Shown: positions 9,255 through 36,157 of the stretch, in pieces
Layout of the letters: each line of letters begins with the position of its first letter
Position numbering within the stretch: the stretch's first letter is position 1
From: a virus
Lineage: Duplodnaviria > Heunggongvirae > Uroviricota > Caudoviricetes
Length of the DNA: 38,666 bases
Strand: one strand, 5' to 3'
IMG/VR virus record: IMGVR_UViG_2609459854_000001
Location: 1-38,666 of that record
The notes under the pieces: generated by a model
Database searches by the model: none
What the model was told of the DNA's origin: nothing
What the model saw: only the letters and a program-made list of their open reading frames with translations
Position numbers and translations under genes: made by a program

Positions 9255-10250
9255 GTGACCGTGAGAGCACTACTGACCCCTGAAATTGCCCCGCGTATGG
9301 GGATCGTATTGTTCAGGCCCGGTTCAGAGCTGATGCCCCTGTTTATGCAGGGGCGTGTCCTGCTGGAGCCTGAGCCGGAGCGTTATTCATCTTTCGCCAG
9401 TGGTGCCGTTCCCGCGGCATCACAACCGCTGGCGGATGATCCTGCCGTTCGGGCCGTGTTCCGCAATGAGGCAGTGATCCGTCGTGCTGGTGGCGTGGAA
9501 TGTCTTGAAAGCTGGTTACTTCGTGAAAAGGGCTGTCAGTGGCCTCATTCCGACTGGCACAGCGAGAACATGACCACAATGCGACACGCTCCGGGCGCAA
9601 TCCGTCTGTGTTGGCACTGCGATAACCAGCTGCGCGATCAGTTCACGGAACGGCTGGAATCAATGGCAACGGATAACTGTGCCCGCTGGGTGTTGTCTGT
9701 TGTGCGCCGTGATCTCGGTTTTGATGATAGTCACGTTGTGACAATGCCGGAACTGTGCTGGTGGCTGGTTCGTAATGACCTGGCGGATGCCTTACCGGAA
9801 AGTGCAGCCCGTAAGGCACTGAGATTACCGAAGCCTATTGTGCCGTCTGTCACCCGGGAAAGTGACCTTGTTCCTTCGGTTCCTGCCACCAGCATCATCC
9901 AGGATAAAGCGAAAAAGGTGCTGTCGCTGGAAGTGGATCCGGAGTCGCCGGAGTCTTTTATGTTACGCCCCAAACGTCGCCGTTGGGTTAATGAAAAGTA
10001 CACGCGCTGGGTTAAGACACAGCCGTGTGCATGTTGTGGAAAGCTTGCTGATGATCCCCACCACCTGATAGGCCACGGTCAGGGGGGAATGGGTACAAAA
10101 GCGCATGACCTCTTTGTGTTGCCTTTGTGCAGAAAGCATCACGACGATCTGCATGCGGATACCGTGGCATTTGAAGAAAAGTATGGCTCCCAGTTGGAGC
10201 TGATATTTCGTTTTATCGATCGTGCGCTGGCAATTGGCGTGCTGGCGTAA
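9255..10250 (+). CDS. DUF968-like phage protein with a C-terminal His/Cys-rich nuclease-like motif
   Basis: 331 aa; C-terminal ...CACCGK...HHLIGHGQGG...KAHD...CRKHHDDLH; GTG start assumed, so the start is uncertain. Confidence 0.5.
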   Translation: MTVRALLTPEIAPRMGIVLFRPGSELMPLFMQGRVLLEPEPERYSSFASGAVPAASQPLADDPAVRAVFRNEAVIRRAGGVECLESWLLREKGCQWPHSDWHSENMTTMRHAPGAIRLCWHCDNQLRDQFTERLESMATDNCARWVLSVVRRDLGFDDSHVVTMPELCWWLVRNDLADALPESAARKALRLPKPIVPSVTRESDLVPSVPATSIIQDKAKKVLSLEVDPESPESFMLRPKRRRWVNEKYTRWVKTQPCACCGKLADDPHHLIGHGQGGMGTKAHDLFVLPLCRKHHDDLHADTVAFEEKYGSQLELIFRFIDRALAIGVLA

Positions 10251-10263
10251 GTGGAGAACGAGC

Positions 10264-11016
10264 ATGAACCTTGAAGCCTTACCAAAATATTACTCCCCAA
10301 AATCTCCAAAATTGAGCGATGACGCACCGGCGACAGGCTCAGGTGGTTTAACGATTACGGATGTGATGGCTGCGCAGGGGATGGTGCAGTCGAAAGCACC
10401 GCTTGGGTTTGCCTTATTCCTGGCAAAAGTTGGTGTTCAGGATCCTCAGTTTGCGATTGAAGGTCTGCTCAATTACGCGATGGCACTGGATAACCCGACA
10501 TTGAACAAATTGAGTGAAGAAACCCGGTTACAGATCATCCCTTACCTTGTGAATTTTGCCTTTGCTGATTATTCCAGGTCTGCGGCAAGTAAGGCTCGCT
10601 GTGAGCATTGTGCTGGTACTGGATTTCATAATGTATTGCGCGAAGTGGTGAAACACTCCAGAAGCGGGGAATCTGTTATCAAGGAAGAGTGGGTGAAGGA
10701 ACTATGTCAGCATTGCCATGGTAAGGGAGAAGTCAGCACCGCGTGCAGAGGGTGTAAGGGTAAAGGTATTGTCCTGGATGAAAAAAGAACCCGGCTTCAT
10801 GGCACGCCTGTTTATAAGATTTGTGGGCGTTGCAGTGGAAACCGGTTTAGCCGTTTACCAACCACACTGGCGCGGCTTCATGTCCAGAAGCTGGTACCAG
10901 ACCTGACGGATTATCAGTGGTACAAAGGATATGCAGATGTCATTGATAAACTGGTTACAAAGTGCTGGCAGGAGGAAGCTTACGCTGAAGCACAATTGAG
11001 AAGGGTGACGAGATAA
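10264..11016 (+). CDS. late-gene antiterminator (Q-like), putative
   Basis: Last early gene before a hairpin terminator and the lysis cassette; four CxxCxGxG Zn-binding repeats; assignment rests mainly on position. Confidence 0.5.
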   Translation: MNLEALPKYYSPKSPKLSDDAPATGSGGLTITDVMAAQGMVQSKAPLGFALFLAKVGVQDPQFAIEGLLNYAMALDNPTLNKLSEETRLQIIPYLVNFAFADYSRSAASKARCEHCAGTGFHNVLREVVKHSRSGESVIKEEWVKELCQHCHGKGEVSTACRGCKGKGIVLDEKRTRLHGTPVYKICGRCSGNRFSRLPTTLARLHVQKLVPDLTDYQWYKGYADVIDKLVTKCWQEEAYAEAQLRRVTR

Positions 11017-11230: not shown

Positions 11231-11500
11231 ATGAAACTGACCTCTATCCATCTTGAAATACTACGTCGAGTGAATGAATTGCAGCCAAAGGATTCTAGAA
11301 TTCAGGCTGCATCATTACCTCATCTCTCAGCAAAAGAGGTTAACTTTGCTATTTCAGATCTTGCTGATATAGGTTTTATCGATGTTATACGAAGCAAATC
11401 TGCCGAAGGTGGATTGATTGCTAATGAGATAACGTCAAAAGGTTTTGCTTTTTTGAGTGAGATTGGCGCTGAAAAAAATTCATCGATGAGCACTCATTGA
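11231..11500 (+). CDS. small hypothetical protein (89 aa), moron gene 1
   Basis: AT-rich ORF with AGGAGA RBS, between the Q terminator and the lysis cassette; possible small winged-helix fold, no firm motif. Confidence 0.5.
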   Translation: MKLTSIHLEILRRVNELQPKDSRIQAASLPHLSAKEVNFAISDLADIGFIDVIRSKSAEGGLIANEITSKGFAFLSEIGAEKNSSMSTH

Positions 11501-11514
11501 TTTCTGCTTCAATC

Positions 11515-11532
11515 GGCTGCCAATTGGCAGCC
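11515..11532. promoter_or_regulatory. perfect 18-bp palindrome ggctgccaattggcagcc between the two moron genes
   Basis: 7-bp arms around AATT; could be a protein-binding site or a terminator-less hairpin. Confidence 0.3.
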
Positions 11533-11697
11533 TAAACTGTAAAGTGAATTTAAAATCGCCTACAATTGATGCTTAAATTTTGTTCTGTATCATCTGCAGG
11601 TTTAGGGATATCACAGTAGCTTTCTGACAAGAAGAGTTCTTTTCTTCTACCAATGAAGTGGTTATGTTAACCTGCGCTAAATCGAGACTGGTGCGGA

Positions 11698-12504
11698 GTG
11701 GAATCGAAAGTGTCATATTTTTACAGAAGCAAGAATATTTCAGGTGTTTCTATAAATGAAGATAGCTTGATTAGCTTAAGCACGGCAATTGTCGAACGCT
11801 GCGTTAAAATGAATGAGCAAGCTCAAAAGGAAAGTAGGGAAGTTTGTGCTCAATGTGTTTTTTTTATTTTGTTCGATGGTAAGGGGTATAAAGTTGATTC
11901 TATCGGTGAGCTTGTGAAATACTTTAGACAGGCCACTAGGATTGATCAAATAATTTTTACTATTGAAACTTATCAAAGTCGACAGTCTAACAGGATGAAT
12001 GGATCTTGGATGGAGCTACGAATTGATGAGAGGAATTCAAATAGCAGCACAATGATTGTAGCATCGGAAGATAATGAGTGGGTTGACTCGTTATGGATTA
12101 CGATTCAGGATTTACTTAACAAGTGCAAAAATAAATTTAGATTTTTTAGAACAGCTTGGACTATGTTAAGTATCCAGATTTCAGGTGTGACAGTTGGCTT
12201 TTTGCTTAGCTTATGGACAGCCTCAAAACTGGCGCCAAAACTATCAATCGATGGTGCATTTGCTTTATCATTTATTTGTATCTTTATTTTGTTTTCGAAC
12301 TTATGGAGCTTTGCTATTCCATTAATAATTAAGCTTATCGACTTTTTGTTTCCTAGTGTTAAGTTTGTTATTAATGGTAAAAATTACTTTCACTGGAGTG
12401 TCCAGGCTATAATTGGAGCGATTGCCAGTGCGGTTATATTGTATTTTATTAGCTCCATGTTGCTTTTTGCATTAGAAATGTTAAATAGCATCATTAAGAA
12501 ATAG
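11698..12504 (+). CDS. hypothetical membrane protein (268 aa; soluble N-terminal domain plus about 3 C-terminal TM helices), moron gene 2
   Basis: AT-rich ORF; hydrophobic segments near residues 160-180, 195-225 and 235-260; start uncertain (track start is GTG; first in-frame ATG at 11809). Confidence 0.5.
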   Translation: MESKVSYFYRSKNISGVSINEDSLISLSTAIVERCVKMNEQAQKESREVCAQCVFFILFDGKGYKVDSIGELVKYFRQATRIDQIIFTIETYQSRQSNRMNGSWMELRIDERNSNSSTMIVASEDNEWVDSLWITIQDLLNKCKNKFRFFRTAWTMLSIQISGVTVGFLLSLWTASKLAPKLSIDGAFALSFICIFILFSNLWSFAIPLIIKLIDFLFPSVKFVINGKNYFHWSVQAIIGAIASAVILYFISSMLLFALEMLNSIIKK

Positions 12505-13267: not shown

Positions 13268-13881
13268 TGAACCAATCACAATTTCAGCAGGCGGCTGGTA
13301 TCAGCGCCGATGTTTCTGCACGCTGGTTTCCGCACATTGATGCGGCAATGAAAGAGTTTGGTATTACAGCAGTTAATGATCAGGCCATGTTCATTGCACA
13401 AGTCGGGCATGAGTCTGCAGGATTTACTTCGCTGGCAGAGAGTTTTAACTACTCGGTTGAAGGGCTGAAGAAAACCTTTGGTAAGCGTCTGACGCCGTAC
13501 CAGTGCGAAATGCTGGGGCGTGTCGATGGTAAACAGGTCGCTCACCAGCCGCAAATAGCCAATCTGGTTTACGGTGACCGCATGGGGAATAACAGCCAGG
13601 GTGACGGCTGGAAATATCGCGGTCGTGGCCTGCTTCAAATTACTGGCCGTGAGAACTACACCAAATGTGGTGCGGCGCTGAAACTTGACCTTGTCAGTAC
13701 ACCAGAATTGCTAACGCAGGAGCGACATGCGGCCCGTTCGGCGGCGTGGTACTTCACGTTACGCGGTTGCTTGATGTATTCGGGTGACGTGGAACGTGTA
13801 ACGCAGATTATTAACGGCGGACAGAATGGCATTAAAGACCGCCGTGAACGTTACGCCAAAGCAAAAGCCGCACTGGTATGA
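13267..13881 (+). CDS. endolysin, glycoside hydrolase family 19 (chitinase-like lysozyme)
   Basis: 204 aa; motifs ...AQVGHESAGF...NLVYGDRMGN...GWKYRGRGLLQITGRENY... are typical of GH19 phage endolysins. Confidence 0.85.
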   Translation: MNQSQFQQAAGISADVSARWFPHIDAAMKEFGITAVNDQAMFIAQVGHESAGFTSLAESFNYSVEGLKKTFGKRLTPYQCEMLGRVDGKQVAHQPQIANLVYGDRMGNNSQGDGWKYRGRGLLQITGRENYTKCGAALKLDLVSTPELLTQERHAARSAAWYFTLRGCLMYSGDVERVTQIINGGQNGIKDRRERYAKAKAALV

Positions 13882-13888
13882 GGTCACT

Positions 13889-14158
13889 ATGGGACTTGAA
13901 ATGATTATCGGCCTGGTTGTTGCTGTGCTGGCTGCAATTGCAGGTGCTTTTGGTCTGGGTAAATCACGCGGTACAAGTATCGCAGAAACAAAAGCGGACC
14001 AGCAACGCACTGAAGAACGTGCAGCTGCTACTGAAGCCGTTGCAGAACGTAGGGTAGAGACAACAAAAGGAGCCTGGGATGTACAGCAGACTGTTAATCA
14101 TCTACCTGATGACGATGTTGACCGTGAGTTGCGCGAAAACTTTACCCGCAAAACCTGA
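13889..14158 (+). CDS. i-spanin (Rz-like)
   Basis: ATG at 13889; N-terminal TM helix then charged/coiled region; contains an embedded +1-frame lipoprotein gene. Confidence 0.6.
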   Translation: MGLEMIIGLVVAVLAAIAGAFGLGKSRGTSIAETKADQQRTEERAAATEAVAERRVETTKGAWDVQQTVNHLPDDDVDRELRENFTRKT

Positions 14159-14297
14159 AGTAACGGACACGGCCTGTGACTGGGTAAGAATCATCTACCT
14201 CACAGGTCAGGACATTGAAGTGCTGGATAAGCTTACGAAGCGGGATATTCTGGCACATAACAAAGCAGTACAGCGCAACTGTATTAGCCAGTTATGA
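14079..14297 (+). CDS. o-spanin (Rz1-like outer-membrane lipoprotein), embedded in Rz
   Basis: 72 aa; signal peptide with lipobox ...LTVSC; lies entirely within and past the Rz frame, the classic Rz/Rz1 arrangement. Confidence 0.65.
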   Translation: MYSRLLIIYLMTMLTVSCAKTLPAKPEVTDTACDWVRIIYLTGQDIEVLDKLTKRDILAHNKAVQRNCISQL

Positions 14298-14307
14298 GGC
14301 AAACGAG

Positions 14308-14332
14308 ATTGCGGGCAATTATCGCCCGCAAT
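14308..14332. terminator. hairpin between convergent Rz1 and the reverse-strand moron gene
   Basis: attgcgggc-aattatc-gcccgcaat, 9-bp stem; no strong U-tract on either strand. Confidence 0.35.
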
Positions 14333-14339
14333 AAAGTTA

Positions 14340-14729
14340 TCAATTATCTCCTTTAAAGGAGTCGTATTCACCCCAATCAGCAAACCCAATCGGTCTTTTA
14401 GGGGTCTCTAAGCATAAGCGTTTTTTTCGGATTAGCAGGACATTTATTTGAGATACATGCTGAACAAGTTCTACAGGACTGCCATCCTCCAGAGTACCAA
14501 TGAAAGAAATTAATGATGGATTCCAGTAGCTTATGTCTGTGAAATGAAATTCAATGTTTTTACCAAAGCTAGCTAGTTGTCCTCCTACCTCATACTCTTC
14601 TTCAAGTTCACGGTGAAAATCATTTATCCAGCATATAAGGCGTCTATGAAATTCATTTGCAAGATTGTAGTCCTTTGGAACATATGGCTGTGAGTATTTG
14701 AGGAAATCATTCATGTAGTTATTTGTCAT
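14340..14729 (-). CDS. hypothetical protein (about 129 aa), reverse-oriented moron downstream of the lysis cassette
   Basis: AT-rich ORF convergent with Rz1; start set at the ATG preceded by AAGGA (track ORF extends to 14756); no signal peptide, no recognisable motif. Confidence 0.45.
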   Translation of the reverse strand: MTNNYMNDFLKYSQPYVPKDYNLANEFHRRLICWINDFHRELEEEYEVGGQLASFGKNIEFHFTDISYWNPSLISFIGTLEDGSPVELVQHVSQINVLLIRKKRLCLETPKRPIGFADWGEYDSFKGDN

Positions 14730-14827
14730 CAGGGCGTCCTTTACGAGCATAACCATTGTTACTTAACGGATTGAAACGCTATTAAATAACATGGTTTCTA
14801 TCATAATTTCTATCCGGAGTTTTCCAT

Positions 14828-15178
14828 ATGCCGCCACGAATCCCAAAAGCCTGCCGTGTTCGCGGCTGCCGTTCTACCACTACAGATCCGTCAGGCTACT
14901 GCGAAAATCATAAAGGTGAGGGCTGGAAATCCTACAAGCCAGGTCAATCACGGCAGCAGCGCGGATATGGAACAAAGTGGGAAGTCATCCGGGAGCGGAT
15001 ACTAAAGCGCGACAAAGGGTTATGTCAGAACCATCTTCGGCAGGGAGTTGTGAAGCAAGCGTCCTGCGTGGACCACCTCAAGGCGAAGGCTCACGGCGGC
15101 ACTGATGAAGACAGCAACCTTGAGAGTCTGTGCTGGTCGTGTCACGCAGTGAAGACCGCGCGTGAGCGGTTCAGGTGA
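14828..15178 (+). CDS. HNH endonuclease (terminase-associated)
   Basis: 116 aa; Cys/His-rich with ...CQNH...VDHLKAKAHGGTDEDSNLESLCWSCHAVK...; immediately upstream of the small terminase. Confidence 0.85.
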   Translation: MPPRIPKACRVRGCRSTTTDPSGYCENHKGEGWKSYKPGQSRQQRGYGTKWEVIRERILKRDKGLCQNHLRQGVVKQASCVDHLKAKAHGGTDEDSNLESLCWSCHAVKTARERFR

Positions 15179-15304
15179 GAATTGATGTCATCATCAGCCA
15201 GGGGAGGGGGAGGTCGAATCTTTGCAACCGCGCGCCTTCCGGACTGCCCGCCCCATCGTTTTTTTATACCCGCGAAAAATGAAATTTAACCAGGAGTGCC
15301 GCAT

Positions 15305-15799
15305 ATGGCTGGAACGGCGGGGCGTTCCGGGCGTCGCCCCAAGCCAACGGCGCGCAAGGCGCTGGCCGGAAACCCCGGCAAGCGAGCCCTGAATAAAGAT
15401 GAACCTGTTTTTACGCCCATCAAAGGTGTTGAGCCACCGGAGTGGTTCGCTGAAGAAGAGCTCCCTCTCGCCACGATCATGTGGCAACTGACAACCAAAG
15501 AACTCTGCGGTCAGGGCCTGCTGTGCGTGACTGACCTCGCAGTGCTTGAGCGGTGGTGCGTGGCCTATGAGTTCTGGCGACGTGCTGTGAAAAATATTGC
15601 CAGACAGGGCAACACCATCACCGGTGCAATGGGCGGCATGGTCAAAAATCCGGAGCTGACCGCCAAAAAAGAACAGGAGTCCGAGATGAGCAGTACGGGG
15701 GCAATGCTCGGACTCGACCCCAGCAGCCGCCAGCGTCTGATTGGCCTGGCGGGGCAGAAGAAAGCCACTAACCCGTTTCTGAAAATTATCGAATCATGA
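15305..15799 (+). CDS. terminase small subunit
   Basis: ATG at 15305 with CAGGAG RBS; basic N-terminus; directly upstream of and overlapping the large terminase. Confidence 0.7.
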
Positions 15800-17529
15800 G
15801 CCGGAAATCTTACCCCAACGTAAATGCTGCAAATCAGTATGCCCGGGATGTCGTGCGCGGAAAGATTGTTGCCTGCCAGTTTGTGATTCAGGCCTGCCAG
15901 CGCCATCTTGATGACCTGATGGCGGAAAAAAGTAAGTCGTTTCGTTACCGCTTCGACAAGGACCTGGCTGAACGGGCCGCCAAATTTATTCAGCTGTTGC
16001 CGCACACCAAGGGTGAGTGGGCATTCAAGAGGATGCCCATCACGCTGGAGCCGTGGCAGCTCTTTGTGATCTGCTGTGCGTTTGGCTGGGTCAATAAAGG
16101 GTCCCGGCTGCGCCGCTTCCGGGAGGTGTATACCGAAATCCCCCGTAAGAACGGCAAATCGGCAATCTCTGCCGGTGTCGCCCTGTATTGTTTTGCCTGT
16201 GATAACGAGTTTGGCGCGGAAGTGTATTCCGGTGCCACGACAGAGAAACAGGCGTGGGAAGTCTTTCGTCCGGCGCGACTGATGTGTAAACGCACACCCA
16301 TGCTTACGGAAGCGTTCGGGATTGAGGTTAACGCCTCAAACATGAATCGTCCGGAGGATGGCGCGCGGTTTGAACCGCTGATCGGTAACCCCGGTGATGG
16401 ATCATCACCCCACTGTGCGGTGGTGGATGAATATCACGAGCACGCCACCGATGCGCTTTACACCACGATGCTTACCGGGATGGGGGCGCGACGTCAGCCA
16501 CTGATGTGGGCCATTACTACTGCCGGGTACAACATTGAGGGGCCGTGCTACGACAAGCGGCGGGAAGTTATCGAGATGCTCAACGGCTCGGTACCCAACG
16601 ATGAACTGTTCGGGATCATCTATACCGTTGACGAAGGTGACGAATGGACCGACCCGCAGGTGCTGGAAAAAGCCAATCCAAATATTGGGGTGTCGGTTTA
16701 CCGTGAGTTTTTGTTAAGTCAGCAACAGCGTGCGAAAAATAACGCCCGTCTGGCAAACGTCTTTAAAACAAAACACCTCAATATCTGGGTGTCGGCGCGT
16801 TCGGCGTATTTCAACCTGGTGAGCTGGCAGAGCTGCGAGGATAAATCACTTACCCTTGAGCAGTTCGAGGGGCAGCCGTGCATTCTGGCCTTTGACCTGG
16901 CGCGTAAGCTGGATATGAACAGCATGGCGCGACTTTATACCCGCGAGATTGACGGTAAAACGCATTACTACAGTGTGGCCCCGCGTTTCTGGGTACCGTA
17001 TGACACGGTGTACAGCGTCGAGAAAAATGAAGATCGCCGGACCGCCGAACGCTTTCAGAAATGGGTGGAAATGGGCGTCCTGACCGTTACCGATGGTGCA
17101 GAGGTGGATTATCGCTACATCCTCGAAGAGGCCAAAGCGGCGAACAAAATCAGCCCGGTCAGCGAGTCACCCATCGACCCCTTCGGGGCGACCGGGCTCT
17201 CACATGACCTTGCTGATGAAGACCTGAATCCCGTCACTATCGTCCAGAACTTCACCAATATGTCCGATCCGATGAAAGAGCTGGAAGCAGCGATTGAATC
17301 GGGACGTTTTCATCATGACGGCAATCCCATCATGACCTGGTGTATCGGCAACGTGGTCGGCAAAAACATGCCGGGTAACGATGATGTGGTGAAACCCGTC
17401 AAAGAGCAGGCGGAAAACAAAATTGACGGTGCAGTTGCGCTGATTATGGCGGTTGGCAGAGCCATGCTGTACGAGAAAGAAGACACGCTGTCTGACCACA
17501 TTGAGTCCTACGGGATCCGCTCGCTTTAA
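15796..17529 (+). CDS. terminase large subunit (HK97-like)
   Basis: 577 aa; N-terminal ATPase and C-terminal nuclease arrangement with conserved acidic motifs; position before the portal. Confidence 0.9.
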
Positions 17530-32155: not shown

Positions 32156-32794
32156 ATGCATCGTATAGACACGAAAACCGCGCAGAAGGATAAGTTCGGC
32201 GCGGGTAAGAACGGTTTTACCCGTGGTAACCCCCAGACCGGCACGCCTGCCACCGATCTGGATGATGACTACTTTGACATGTTGCAGGAAGAGCTCTGCA
32301 GCGTGGTGGAGGCATCCGGTGCCAGCCTGGAGAAGGGGCGGCATGACCAGCTGCTTACCGCGCTTCGTGCGCTGCTGTTAAGTCGCAAAAATCCGTTTGG
32401 CGATATCAAATCGGACGGCACGGTGAAAACGGCTCTTCAAAACCTTGGTTTGGGAGAATTATCTCTGGCTGGCACTGCATCGGGTGTCATTGGTCTGAAT
32501 GGGTATGTAACGATTCCGTTAATTATTTCAGGTTCCCGGAGAACACTGATTATTCAGTGGGGGCAGGCGAGATTTGGTGGGTCTGGTGGTGAAGATGCCG
32601 GATATCTTAATGATTTTCCTTTTGCCTTTCCGTCAGCATGTTATGGAATGATAGTTAGTCATGTGGGGCATACACCTTCAGGCGCAGGAATCCTGTCGGC
32701 TTCTGCAATTACATCAAATCAGTTCCGCGGTTTTTCAAGCATAGCGACTGCTGCAAATGCTGTATTAGGTCGTTATATCGCTATAGGGGGTTAA
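32156..32794 (+). CDS. tail fibre protein (constant N-terminal part fused to the currently expressed variable C-terminal cassette)
   Basis: 212 aa; a recombination crossover site lies at codons 94-101 (NLGLGE), so the C-terminal 112 aa is the invertible cassette. Confidence 0.7.
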   Translation: MHRIDTKTAQKDKFGAGKNGFTRGNPQTGTPATDLDDDYFDMLQEELCSVVEASGASLEKGRHDQLLTALRALLLSRKNPFGDIKSDGTVKTALQNLGLGELSLAGTASGVIGLNGYVTIPLIISGSRRTLIIQWGQARFGGSGGEDAGYLNDFPFAFPSACYGMIVSHVGHTPSGAGILSASAITSNQFRGFSSIATAANAVLGRYIAIGG

Positions 32795-32795
32795 T

Positions 32796-33233
32796 ATGTT
32801 TTATAGTCCATCATTAAACATTTTTGTGAATCCTGCGCTTAAGGATGATTACATTAATGCAAATTCATGGCCAGATGATGCTCTGGCTGTCAGTGATGAT
32901 GTTTATAATGAATTTGCAATCAATACGCCCCCATATGACAAAATTCGTGTTGCAGGAAAAAATGGATTACCCACATGGGCACTAATACCTCCACCATCGC
33001 ATGAAGAACTTATTCAACAGGCAGAATCAGAAAGGCAATTATTGCTTAATCAGGCCAACGAATACATGAACAGTAAACAATGGCCCGGTAAAGCCGCTAT
33101 TGGTCGTCTGAAAGACGAGGAACTGGCACTATATAATTTGTGGCTGGATTACCTGGACGCACTGGAACTGGTGGATACCTCCAGTGCTCCAGATATTGAA
33201 TGGCCTACACCTCCGGTAACTCAGGCCAGCTAA
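32796..33233 (+). CDS. tail fibre assembly protein (current orientation)
   Basis: 145 aa directly after the tail fibre; C-terminal ...EWPTPP... is typical of Tfa chaperones. Confidence 0.7.
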   Translation: MFYSPSLNIFVNPALKDDYINANSWPDDALAVSDDVYNEFAINTPPYDKIRVAGKNGLPTWALIPPPSHEELIQQAESERQLLLNQANEYMNSKQWPGKAAIGRLKDEELALYNLWLDYLDALELVDTSSAPDIEWPTPPVTQAS

Positions 33234-33630
33234 TCTCAGGAGCCGTCGAAGTGTCGACGGCTTTTACTTCTTTTTTGTAGTCCATCCAGGCGGATAGTTT
33301 TTCTTTATCTGTACTGCTGATATCACCAAGCATTAATTCCACTCGCCAGTCAGCTGTGACATTATCGGCATGAGCAAGTAACTGCATTCGCTGATTTTCA
33401 GCACGTGCGACATAATCAATCGCCGGAGATTTCAGTACCGGTAAACCATTTTCATCTGACGTGATTAATTTACCCCCTTCCTGCTGTCCGGCAATTAATT
33501 CATTGTATAAGTCTGTACTTATCTCAACAATGTCAGCAGGCATGTCGCTGTTTATACCATCAAAGAAAAAACCATTAGTCGATTTTGAGAAATAAATCAT
33601 AGATATACCTATACACCGATTGCTACCCAA
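33205..33630 (-). CDS. alternative tail fibre assembly protein (inverted orientation)
   Basis: 141 aa on the opposite strand, convergent with the first Tfa; C-terminal ...ISWPELPEV. Confidence 0.65.
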   Translation of the reverse strand: MGSNRCIGISMIYFSKSTNGFFFDGINSDMPADIVEISTDLYNELIAGQQEGGKLITSDENGLPVLKSPAIDYVARAENQRMQLLAHADNVTADWRVELMLGDISSTDKEKLSAWMDYKKEVKAVDTSTAPEISWPELPEV

Positions 33631-33986
33631 AAACAGGACCTTTCATATTTGACAATTTCTCCCTGAGATATACCGCCAACAATTATATAGAACTGTGATT
33701 TGGTGATATCAGAACAGTTCGCAATGCCCATTGCAGATATACCAGCCAACGACGTTGTATGTGGCACAGCCAACAGCGCAAGTGAACGATTTGGGAATGT
33801 TACCGGGTAAGTCACCGTATAGTTTGATGCTCCACTGACAATACCCCACTGAATAATCAGACCTGAAGGGAGTTTTTGAAAACCCGTTGATGAAAGTGAA
33901 CTGGCAAACGCCGCCATATCCGGAATTTGGTTTTGCCCGTTACCTACATTCCGTTTTGCCGCTTCTCCCAAACCAACGTTTATGAA
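33609..33986 (-). CDS. alternative promoterless tail-fibre C-terminal cassette (Sv-prime-like)
   Basis: Minus-strand frame reads ...FINVGLGE... across the crossover site and continues 120 codons; would fuse to the constant fibre N-terminus after inversion. Confidence 0.55.
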   Translation of the reverse strand, partial: FINVGLGEAAKRNVGNGQNQIPDMAAFASSLSSTGFQKLPSGLIIQWGIVSGASNYTVTYPVTFPNRSLALLAVPHTTSLAGISAMGIANCSDITKSQFYIIVGGISQGEIVKYERSCFWVAIGV

Positions 33987-34042
33987 AATGCAGAAATAAC
34001 GAGAAAATGGCATCATTCCTGCTTTTGTCAGAGGGAGCTACC

Positions 34043-34267: not shown

Positions 34268-36157
34268 TTAATCGTATTTTGGCCATACTTTCAATGCAAT
34301 TTCCCCCAACTTTTTACCTCGCTCCAGTATTTCACTCTCATCCCATTTATCCTTAAGTATAAGTGGTATGTTCAGTCGTAGATTGGTGTGGACGATGAGA
34401 GCATCACGTTTTTTCAGAAATACAGCATTCTGAACGGAACGGTTTACGCTAAGGTTAAGCAAAGTTAGATTTCCCAACGTAGCTATCGCTTGTTGCCGTT
34501 TCCTTACCAGTAGCTGTTCAGGGGTAAGATCGGTTCCAGACAGAACAATTTGGTTCATTACCGTAGCATCTGAATTTGTCACCATATGACCATTTTCGAG
34601 AGGCCAACAGGAATACCAACTTTGAGGCATAAGATGATCGATATCGAGATTAGAAAGATTTGGAACATCAGGCTTTTCTGTCTTCACTTGGCGACAAAGT
34701 TCTCTTTCAAGTTCCGTTAACATTGAGCGCATTTTCGGTGCGTCGAGCCTGCCAGGATAAAGTGGAGCATTGATGCAAGCGTTGAGAAATTCTGAGTCCC
34801 CAGGCCAACGTGAGGCTTCGCCATTTAAGCTATTGAGGATATTACGTAACTCAACACTGGAAATTTCCGTTTTAGACAAGTGTCGCAATACATTCATAAA
34901 TACATTGTTGTAATTCTTTGGCGTCAGGCCACATACGGATCTTCGTACTACGTAGGAGACAAGATCATTATACATGGCTGCTTTCTCATCATCGGCGATG
35001 TTAGCTATCGAAATGAACAAAGCAAGCGGATAGAGTGTCGTCACATCATAGGCTGCGATGCGATGTCTAAAGTGTGAGATGGGGGTTGTGCCAAAACCAC
35101 CAACCAATTCTTTATATTGTGATGCATATTGTTTGAGGCGCTTTACTTGCAGATCTGCTCGTTGTGAAGGCAAGTCCTTACTTACATAATCACGATACTC
35201 ATTGTAAAGGCGAGACAGATCAATTTCACGCTGCCTTTCTGATTGCAATGTCGCATGTACAAGCCACTCCATGCGTGGTTTATTAATACGTCCACGGCGT
35301 TGCTTTTCCGACCAGTATTTATCTTCAAAGATCTTCCACTCATTTTCATATAATTCAATAGCATTAATATTTTCATGCTCAGCGCACATAAAGATATAGT
35401 TGCGAATAAGATCCGTTGCATGAAGTTCCGCTCCTCGCCCATTTAATGTTTCAAAAATTATTTGGGCATCATCTTCAGCTTCGAGAAATATGCTTACCAG
35501 TTTCAGATCCGTCAAGACAGCCTCAATTAGTGCTACAGCATTTTCTTGTGGTGAGTGTTTTTCTATTTTAATCCATTTTATAAAGGCTTCAGTAAAAAAC
35601 CATAATGCCTCTAGTGACGGCGGGTGGTTGAAATGTTTACGTAACGTACCATGTTGCGTGAAGCTATCAGAAAATACATTACGGAGATCGTCAATATTAT
35701 CAACATTAAGACTTTGAATAAAATGAGTTTGATCTCGAAAAGTTGGCCACAGTTTGAAGCATTCTACCTTTTTATTTCTCATCGTTGCTTCGTTTGTATT
35801 TTTCAAGCAAGTCAATACTAACCCTTCCAGTTCAGAAAGGCCTGTAGCACGCAATGATAATCGAATGGATGCCAGAATATATTGAAGAGTGGTTAAACGT
35901 TGCTGGCCGTCAATAATATGTATGGTATCTACACCTAACAAGCTGTTTTTGAGTTGAGGTTCCAGCACCACCGCGCCGAGGAAATGAGGGGTTGGTTTTG
36001 TTCCCGAAAGTCGGCTCTGTGCTTTTTCGAAGATATCCTCCAACAAAGCTGACCATTGGTTTCGTTGCGTCCATACGTAGGCACGTTGATAGAATGGAAC
36101 ACGATATTGTCGTTGATTTTGGAAAATTTGCTGGATGGTTAGCGTTTCGGATTTCAT
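34268..36157 (-). CDS. DUF262/DUF1524 (GmrSD-like) type IV restriction endonuclease
   Basis: 629 aa; N-terminal ...FYQRAYVWT...IIDGQQRLTTL... (DUF262 DGQQR motif) and C-terminal ...DIDHLMPQSW...GNLTLLNLSVNRS... (DUF1524 His-Me finger); AT-rich; AGGTAA RBS. Confidence 0.8.
   Translation of the reverse strand: MKSETLTIQQIFQNQRQYRVPFYQRAYVWTQRNQWSALLEDIFEKAQSRLSGTKPTPHFLGAVVLEPQLKNSLLGVDTIHIIDGQQRLTTLQYILASIRLSLRATGLSELEGLVLTCLKNTNEATMRNKKVECFKLWPTFRDQTHFIQSLNVDNIDDLRNVFSDSFTQHGTLRKHFNHPPSLEALWFFTEAFIKWIKIEKHSPQENAVALIEAVLTDLKLVSIFLEAEDDAQIIFETLNGRGAELHATDLIRNYIFMCAEHENINAIELYENEWKIFEDKYWSEKQRRGRINKPRMEWLVHATLQSERQREIDLSRLYNEYRDYVSKDLPSQRADLQVKRLKQYASQYKELVGGFGTTPISHFRHRIAAYDVTTLYPLALFISIANIADDEKAAMYNDLVSYVVRRSVCGLTPKNYNNVFMNVLRHLSKTEISSVELRNILNSLNGEASRWPGDSEFLNACINAPLYPGRLDAPKMRSMLTELERELCRQVKTEKPDVPNLSNLDIDHLMPQSWYSCWPLENGHMVTNSDATVMNQIVLSGTDLTPEQLLVRKRQQAIATLGNLTLLNLSVNRSVQNAVFLKKRDALIVHTNLRLNIPLILKDKWDESEILERGKKLGEIALKVWPKYD

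Follow-up and report, generated by a model that had tools for sequence, protein, structure and literature searches.

A reverse-oriented DUF6173 gene as apparent mobile cargo between the lysis and packaging genes of an SfV-like Escherichia coli prophage

A gene that runs against the late operon of a temperate phage raises the question of why it is there and what it does for the element that carries it. We address this question for a reverse-oriented gene lying between the Rz/Rz1 spanin genes and the terminase genes of IMG/VR record IMGVR_UViG_2609459854_000001, which was analyzed at its full length of 38,666 nucleotides (hereafter the window) and represents an almost complete SfV-like E. coli prophage of the HK97 type. 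The gene encodes a protein of 129 amino acids that belongs to the DUF6173 family. Sequence comparisons indicate that it is one selected, autonomous and horizontally mobile gene, placed antisense in a cargo slot of the late operon and in need of no partner. We tentatively favor, at somewhat less than an even chance, the view that positions 14285-14827 are a self-contained moron cassette, horizontally acquired and encoding a lysogen-expressed binding protein that acts in phage/mobile-element conflict.

An earlier note on this DNA had found no family to which the product could be assigned, but one exists. The protein matches Pfam PF19670 (DUF6173) with 75.8 bits against a cut-off of 27 (E = 3.8e-21) over profile positions 16-101 of 102, and it matches phrog_3306 at 2.4e-17; its RefSeq entry, WP_000184049.1, is already named "DUF6173 family protein." DUF6173 was the sole Pfam family returned for the product. 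All 37 aligned homologues also match PF19670, and a Pfam scan of the same 37 proteins at E values up to 10 found no consistent weak second family. WP_000184049.1 is a typical member of Pfam DUF6173 and PHROG 3306, with a full-length match and no difference seen. Thus, the gene is already catalogued in Pfam and RefSeq, in a family for which no function has been described.

The family is large and widely distributed. The clustered protein database holds 281 homologues, and the full HMMER scan returned 1485 representative clusters at 50% identity, 996 of them at E values up to 1e-10. The E. coli protein is 60-85% identical to homologues from Klebsiella, Citrobacter, Serratia, Pseudomonas, Pseudoalteromonas, Aeromonas and Oxalicibacterium, and 43-55% identical to those from Bacillales, Sporomusa, cyanobacteria, Acidobacteria and Planctomycetes. 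The motifs NLAxEF, WINDFH, EVG..L..FG, YWNPSLISF, VELVQHVSQI and PKRPIGF are all present in the E. coli product. The 37-sequence alignment has 33 invariant columns, and among 150 representatives of the 50% identity clusters 17 positions are conserved in at least 90% of the sequences, the polar ones being E47, Q90, H91 and Q94. When the gene was compared with 17 homologous coding sequences, the proportion of synonymous differences (pS) was 0.72-0.99, i.e., saturated, versus a proportion of nonsynonymous differences (pN) of 0.17-0.31. Judging from these values, the DUF6173 frame is under strong purifying selection. Conservation of the frame in related phages had been proposed in the earlier note as a check, and the same comparison answers it affirmatively. 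With its family match, its homologues and the selection acting on it, the open reading frame (ORF) is a real gene and not a chance ORF.

The slot that holds the gene varies in content. By blastn, homology with four related prophages (L016-L019) ends at 14267-14284 and resumes at 14828 (L017) or 14876 (L016). In these relatives the slot is occupied by two forward hypothetical genes, by a reverse YfbU-family gene (L017 3803-4342, in a related E. coli prophage), by a reverse 167-amino-acid gene among others, or by a short forward gene. Among 5426 complete E. coli genomes, 33 carry the DUF6173 gene, always at no less than 99% identity, versus 107 genomes that carry the related GH19 lysis module. 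The gene has a G+C content of 37.4% (32% at third codon positions, GC3), whereas the flanking Rz, endolysin, HNH, terS and terL genes have 49.5-58.5% (GC3 52-65%). Two marks of a moron, differing slot content in relatives and deviant base composition, are found here. The alignments indicate that the interval from Rz1 to HNH/terS is a hypervariable cargo slot, and the base composition (37% versus 50-58% G+C in the flanks) that the cassette is of foreign, horizontally acquired origin. The features of the locus are as follows.

13826-14297, plus strand: Rz/Rz1 spanin pair, the end of the lysis cassette (ORF list and NCBI Prokaryotic Genome Annotation Pipeline, PGAP).
14285-14827, no strand: variable cassette replacing other cargo of relatives (blastn against relatives L016-L019).
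14308-14332, no strand: hairpin with a 9-bp G+C-rich stem between the convergent Rz1 and DUF6173 stops (RNA folds).
14340-14729, minus strand: DUF6173 family coding sequence, 129 amino acids (ORF list, PF19670, phrog_3306, PGAP WP_000184049.1 at the same coordinates, purifying selection).
14730-14827, minus strand: AT-rich spacer of 98 bp between the divergent DUF6173 and HNH starts, with a weak candidate promoter.
14737-14741, minus strand: Shine-Dalgarno-like AAGGA, read from the sequence, with a 7-nt spacer to the ATG at 14729.
14828-15178, plus strand: HNH endonuclease gene preceding terS (Pfam HNH, 8.3e-09; PGAP).

The prophage reads integrase, CI-like S24 repressor, Q antiterminator (10222-11016), two holins, GH19 endolysin and Rz/Rz1, followed by the DUF6173 gene on the minus strand and then by HNH, terS (15296-15799), terL (15796-17529), portal and a contractile tail. 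The Rz ORF spans 13826-14158 with a PGAP start at 13889, and its product has an N-terminal hydrophobic segment; the overlapping Rz1 starts at 14079 or 14115 and ends at 14297, and its product carries the motif ...LTVSC. The coding sequence of the DUF6173 gene is 390 nt including the TGA at 14340-14342 and starts with the ATG at 14729-14727 (minus strand). In the ORF list the mechanical ORF extends to an ATG at 14756, which would give 138 amino acids. The ATG at 14729 is preferred because of the AAGGA Shine-Dalgarno sequence, because it is the PGAP start of WP_000184049.1, and because the first residue of its product aligns with the N-termini of homologues.

The product is a soluble protein of about 15 kDa with an acidic isoelectric point (pI) of 5.1, close to the family median of 5.2. 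A search for a hydrophobic N-terminus found none (maximum 19-residue Kyte-Doolittle mean 0.74), and the first cysteine is residue 33 and not part of a lipobox. Much of the earlier description of the locus therefore stands, namely a minus-strand ORF of roughly 129 amino acids convergent with the spanins, separated from them by a hairpin with a 9-bp stem, AT-rich, lacking both signal peptide and lipobox, and lying in the slot equivalent to that of lambda bor. The proposed comparison of slot occupancy among related prophages bears out the last point, with homology breaks and other genes filling the slot. The span of 14308-14729 given there for the gene is right at its upper end, the ATG at 14729, and wrong at its lower end, since 14308 is the start of the hairpin and the gene stops at 14340-14342.

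To characterize the surroundings of the family, DUF6173 genes from 77 genomic loci, 41 IMG/VR loci and others were grouped at 90% identity, which gave 91 groups. Of the 91 groups, 16 have lysis genes on the downstream side, terminase genes on the upstream side or both, without exception on the strand opposite to DUF6173; in 8 groups both lie within 4 kb. The adjoining small terminases come from three families (phrog_1206, phrog_51 and the P27 family). In six Yersinia prophage loci an identical 143-amino-acid protein stays 72 nt from terS, and on the other side the contents vary, with KilA-N, Rha or ANT genes and three lysis cassette types. Klebsiella prophages have the same arrangement with a Mu-F-type head module; the head-gene region of one DUF6173-carrying Klebsiella prophage also includes a reverse gene of the Rap1a family, which resembles type VI secretion system (T6SS) immunity genes (L004 1046-1390). 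Other phage copies have other positions. In the P2-like Pseudoalteromonas phage C5a the gene adjoins the integrase, and in a C. difficile phage it lies reversed among early genes.

Outside phages the gene is found in several further kinds of mobile element. In marine gammaproteobacteria it is flanked by attC-like sites (ATAACA ... palindrome ... GCGTTATGC or GTTGGGY) and stands in a same-strand array (L143-L150, e.g., L143 975-5210) with ParE/Phd toxin-antitoxin cassettes. The flanks and the array are shared with integron cassettes and suggest that the marine homologues are integron-type cassettes. The window gene differs in that it sits in a phage late operon and its flanking hairpin has no attC core; this 25-nt hairpin is the only palindrome flanking the gene, and it contains no GTTRRRY core. 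In A. baumannii the gene is carried on small plasmids, where it follows TPR and SMI1/KNR4 genes or adjoins BrnTA; in Pseudomonas oryzihabitans a resolvase gene and a Pycsar system flank it; and in Methylophaga it is directly downstream of an intact 652-amino-acid OLD-family nuclease gene. Taken together, the loci indicate that the family travels as cargo of one gene, whether in a shared slot of phages that are themselves unrelated, in integron-type arrays, on small plasmids or beside integrases.

The marine array comprises a 256-amino-acid unknown, DUF6173, Peptidase_M23, TonB_C, and ParE/Phd and Unstab_antitox/ParE pairs, and its spacers are imperfect palindromes of 60-190 nt, bounded by ATAACA ... 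GCGTTATGC or GTTGGGY, that resemble the attC sites of chromosomal integrons. Marine Methylophaga-like genomes show the insertion of a tnpA-only Tn3-family element, bounded by perfect 39-bp inverted repeats (GGGGTCCTAGGG...), in the OLD-family nuclease gene (L012 2055-5281); the insertion lies just upstream of DUF6173 and leaves a 212-amino-acid TOPRIM remnant. A transposon module consisting of Tn3 transposase, 212-amino-acid protein and DUF6173 was considered and rejected, since the tnpA-only element has its own inverted repeats and DUF6173 lies outside them. At another locus (L028 3883-5841) an intact OLD gene adjoins a type I restriction gene interrupted by an ISL3-type transposase.

A conserved partner gene was sought by clustering all ORFs within 4 kb in 133 loci, and the largest neighbor cluster occurs in 8 of the 91 groups. 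Apparent same-strand upstream partners proved to be shadow ORFs lying opposite terS, terL and portal genes and were discarded. For Firmicutes, the idea of a conserved chromosomal locus was likewise rejected, synteny there being confined to single genera. By Pfam counts the immediate neighbors of DUF6173 are a mixture of phage, mobile-element and housekeeping genes.

The closest known analogues of the arrangement are lambda bor and the Tai genes. Lambda bor, the classical reverse-oriented moron after Rz/Rz1, is expressed in the lysogen, and its product Bor, which carries a signal peptide and a lipobox, is exported to the outer membrane as a lipoprotein. Like bor, the DUF6173 gene lies directly after Rz/Rz1, runs against the late operon, deviates in composition and is missing from many relatives. 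Its product differs from Bor in being cytoplasmic and acidic and in having its first cysteine at residue 33 with no export signal. A Bor/Iss homologue was rejected on the absence of an export signal, the absence of similarity, and a Pfam scan that gave DUF6173 only. In phage phi80, taiEcA is a reverse gene upstream of the packaging module that interrupts the Q-driven late operon, and TaiEcA is made in the lysogen, as detected by western blot, and less of it when Q is expressed (PMC11364771). The slot upstream of the packaging module is the predominant location of Tai genes in phages, and homologues have been reported in enterobacterial phages, phage-inducible chromosomal islands and P4-like satellites (PMC11364771). 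The DUF6173 gene shares with taiEcA the slot, the reverse orientation and the place within the Q late operon; TaiEcA differs in its length of about 204 amino acids and its unrelated sequence, and DUF6173 spans many phyla versus the enterobacterial Tai. What the DUF6173 gene shares with bor and Tai is thus only the slot, the orientation and the presumed expression logic.

By that logic the gene is probably expressed in the lysogen, a reasonable reading of its reverse orientation. It would be transcribed leftward alone, from a weak promoter located either in the AT-rich spacer or within HNH, and the transcript would end at the hairpin common to Rz1 and DUF6173; being transcribed on its own in this direction, the product would be made in the lysogen. 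The spacer holds a single candidate promoter, ATGGAA-16 nt-TATGAT at 14827-14800 (minus strand), which agrees with the consensus at 8 of 12 positions. A second sigma-70-like site, CTGACA-18-TAGTAT at 15028-14999 (minus strand), lies inside HNH and agrees at 9 of 12. During lytic growth, as the gene order suggests, the Q-antiterminated late transcript would read through DUF6173 antisense to reach HNH, terS, terL and the structural genes, and, by analogy with phi80 taiEcA, this antisense transcript would damp DUF6173 expression. A gene embedded antisense in the late operon in this way would correspond to a "noncontiguous operon" arrangement.

The hairpin occupies 25 nt (ATTGCGGGC-aattatc-GCCCGCAAT, 14308-14332) beyond the Rz1 stop at 14297. 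It folds at -18.1 kcal/mol on the plus strand and -18.0 kcal/mol on the minus strand, with z = -3.9 and -4.2, respectively, against shuffled sequences. The stem is followed by AAAGUUA on the plus strand and by CUCGUUUG on the minus strand, and because of these sequences it is not a canonical intrinsic terminator; a terminator scan did not call it, the canonical U-run being absent. Its sequence and fold mark it as a terminator-like element that has no canonical U-run. Strong hairpins right after the DUF6173 stop recur in other phage copies with unrelated sequences. Rfam scans of the locus, at gathering and at E-value thresholds, and tRNA scans returned nothing.

An AlphaFold2 model of the product (predicted local distance difference test score, pLDDT, of 84) has a helix at residues 24-41 and strands at 46-54, 57-69, 73-79, 85-91 and 97-103. 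The modeled order, an N-terminal alpha helix and then five strands of which one is long and bent, fits the element order of the Sm / LSm / Hfq fold. The best structural neighbors are Sm-/SH3-like small barrels (the Pelota/Dom34 N-domain, Hfq, LSm, Gemin6/7 and WYL), all of them weak and generic matches. Tentatively, then, the protein may fold as an N-terminal helix plus a five-stranded Sm/SH3-like barrel. The helix and five strands of the model are shared with Sm-/SH3-like barrels, and some DUF6173 members are fused to a helix-turn-helix (HTH) domain; WYL-domain regulators have a comparable HTH-plus-barrel architecture. The fusions are the long homologues P0141, P0145 and P0159 (L138, L139), with an N-terminal XRE-type HTH, tens of copies of short helical repeats (e.g., NPAMKLVDDAMRVAD) and a C-terminal DUF6173. 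One XRE-HTH fusion lies near a HaeII restriction-modification system and IS110, and another upstream of a PLDc_2 nuclease-like gene.

With equally low confidence, the protein could act by stoichiometric binding and not by catalysis of a known family, and the binding surface might use the near-invariant E47, Q90-H91-x-x-Q94 and the PKRPIGF segment. The target might be something conserved across bacterial phyla, i.e., a nucleic acid, a nucleotide, or a core host or phage component. The pay-off could then be protection of the carrier element or the host in phage/mobile-element conflict, e.g., by superinfection exclusion, and this too is offered only tentatively. The conflict reading is supported by defense neighbors, namely OLD in Methylophaga, Pycsar in Pseudomonas, and GmrSD in the same prophage as the window gene. 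In one preprint, integron cassettes of unassigned function are reported to encode phage defense (bioRxiv 10.1101/2024.07.02.601719). A bolder version, in which DUF6173 is a new stand-alone conflict effector (single-gene defense or counter-defense) whose Sm-like barrel binds a target conserved phylum-wide, is possible, although we hold it with considerable doubt. Such a role would explain carriage as one gene by phages (reversed, in the lysis-to-terminase slot), by integrons and by small plasmids.

A number of observations weigh against a lysogen-expressed conflict protein. The sigma-70-like sites upstream of it (8/12 and 9/12) are no better than those in shuffled sequence, and the hairpin at its end lacks a U-run. 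In several phages the DUF6173 start is about 20-30 nt from the divergent terS start, which leaves no room for a promoter in the spacer, so that any promoter must be inside terS. The core identity of 45-50% between E. coli and Firmicutes is unusually high for a protein that targets fast-evolving phage parts, and many non-phage copies sit among same-strand housekeeping genes. Counting one gene on each side, about 12 immediate neighbors among the 91 groups match known or candidate defense models, and the association with defense genes suggested by these neighbors is modest. No PADLOC-DB 2.0 family matched the product at E values up to 0.1, an NCBIfam scan of it gave no match, and a literature search on DUF6173, PF19670, WP_000184049 and phrog_3306 found no paper.

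The structural side has its own difficulties. The acidic pI disfavors general nucleic-acid binding. Foldseek found nothing at E values of 0.001 or below in PDB and BFVD, and a profile search of PDB sequences returned only noise (E at least 0.49). Kinship with E. coli Hfq, an idea drawn from the VQH that ends strand 4 and the YKH of Sm2, is unsupported (hhalign probability 1.4%), and kinship with R67 dihydrofolate reductase fares no better (0.06%). A Tai homologue was rejected as well. The family profile aligned with phi80 gp52 at an hhalign probability of 0.3%, gp52 being a reverse 204-amino-acid right-end gene that we take, by position, orientation and size, to be orf63/TaiEcA.

Several other explanations were weighed. 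The protein might be a host-physiology or regulatory factor, an Sm/WYL-like sensor or chaperone that binds RNA, single-stranded DNA or a core host protein and tunes a host pathway such as stress or SOS, translation or RNA turnover, in a way that benefits the lysogen or helps to maintain the prophage; we think this unlikely, though not strikingly so. Distinctly unlikely in our estimate is a counter-defense protein that is made from its own promoter, pre-late or constitutively, and neutralizes host immunity, e.g., by sequestering a signaling nucleotide or by masking or mimicking a target. A small, acidic, cytoplasmic protein of no enzymatic family, with highly conserved polar residues, would suit a ligand or target shared by many phyla, and Pycsar, OLD, restriction-modification and cyclic-oligonucleotide-based antiphage signaling system (CBASS) effector genes adjoin the family in some genomes. 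The location is a further point in favor. Position 1 of SfV (U82619/NC_003444) aligns at about 15238 of the window, between HNH and terS, so that in the virion the DUF6173 and HNH genes would close the chromosome at its cos-proximal right end. In lambda the right end is the first DNA to enter the cell, as set by packaging polarity, and the same may hold for the window phage. However, many copies reside in chromosomes, small plasmids and integron-type arrays, none of which has to overcome host defense in the course of an infection; just two of 50,697 sequenced phage records have a homologue, neither annotated as virulent; and the protein has no similarity to any solved sponge or inhibitor structure.

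It is quite improbable that the gene encodes an orphan immunity protein, mobile protective cargo against a toxin from competing bacteria such as a polymorphic toxin or an effector of T6SS or contact-dependent inhibition. The small, acidic, cytoplasmic and stand-alone product is typical of immunity proteins, the A. baumannii plasmid gene follows TPR and SMI1/KNR4 genes on the same strand (SMI1/KNR4 being a classic immunity family), and a Klebsiella DUF6173 prophage also holds the reverse Rap1a-family gene; yet no toxin gene was found beside any of the 91 groups, and rapid divergence is the norm for immunity families, whereas DUF6173 keeps identities of 45-85% across orders and phyla. A role in DNA packaging as a lytic-cycle accessory and the alternative of a decaying, nonfunctional remnant are both unlikely, to the point that we give them hardly any weight. 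The gene is directly beside terS in many phages, with spacers of 20-100 nt, a tight linkage that would fit a packaging role; but the gene invariably runs antisense to the late operon, is missing from most relatives that share the packaging genes, and also occurs where there is no terminase, namely on plasmids, in chromosomes and in integron-type arrays. The remnant is excluded by the strong purifying selection on the frame.

The junction between lysis and packaging genes in temperate phages is known to house genes that alter the lysogen, such as Bor and Tai, and in this respect the present gene looks like an ordinary moron at a known hot spot. It stands out from the routine because of the breadth of its family, the family's conservation and its repeated capture as one gene. 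With about 1500 representative clusters in many phyla, DUF6173 is unusually conserved for mobile cargo and needs no partner gene, and several kinds of mobile element have picked it up independently. If a role in defense, counter-defense or host modulation proved true, a whole DUF would be annotated, and a small-barrel protein would join the functions known from single-gene cargo; if nothing measurable came of it, the gene would be an ordinary moron. A 390-bp gene present in 33 sequenced E. coli strains, with close relatives without the gene for comparison, is a cheap and well-defined experimental candidate.

Other cargo was observed elsewhere in the window. A second AT-rich insert (33-38% G+C) at 11231-12504, between the Q antiterminator and the holins, occupies an stx-type moron slot. 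It encodes an 89-amino-acid winged-helix protein (weak DUF2513 match; phrog_32916) and a 268-amino-acid protein with a hydrophobic C-terminal half (phrog_30208); neither protein matched PADLOC, and Pfam gave nothing above threshold for either. In relatives this slot is filled by a DUF5677 gene or by the gene of an SDH-family Clp-fold serine protease. A 629-amino-acid GmrSD-family type IV restriction enzyme is encoded at 34268-36157 on the minus strand, after the tail-fiber genes (GmrSD_N 1.4e-33, GmrSD_C 3.8e-19), and is a known defense gene in a third cargo slot of the same prophage. Just before it, 32156-33233 (plus strand) and 33205-34016 (minus strand) form opposed pairs of a Gp53-like_C tail-fiber C-terminus and a Caudo_TAP assembly protein, and from its gene layout the segment 32156-34016 is a candidate invertible host-range segment resembling the Mu G / P1 C type.

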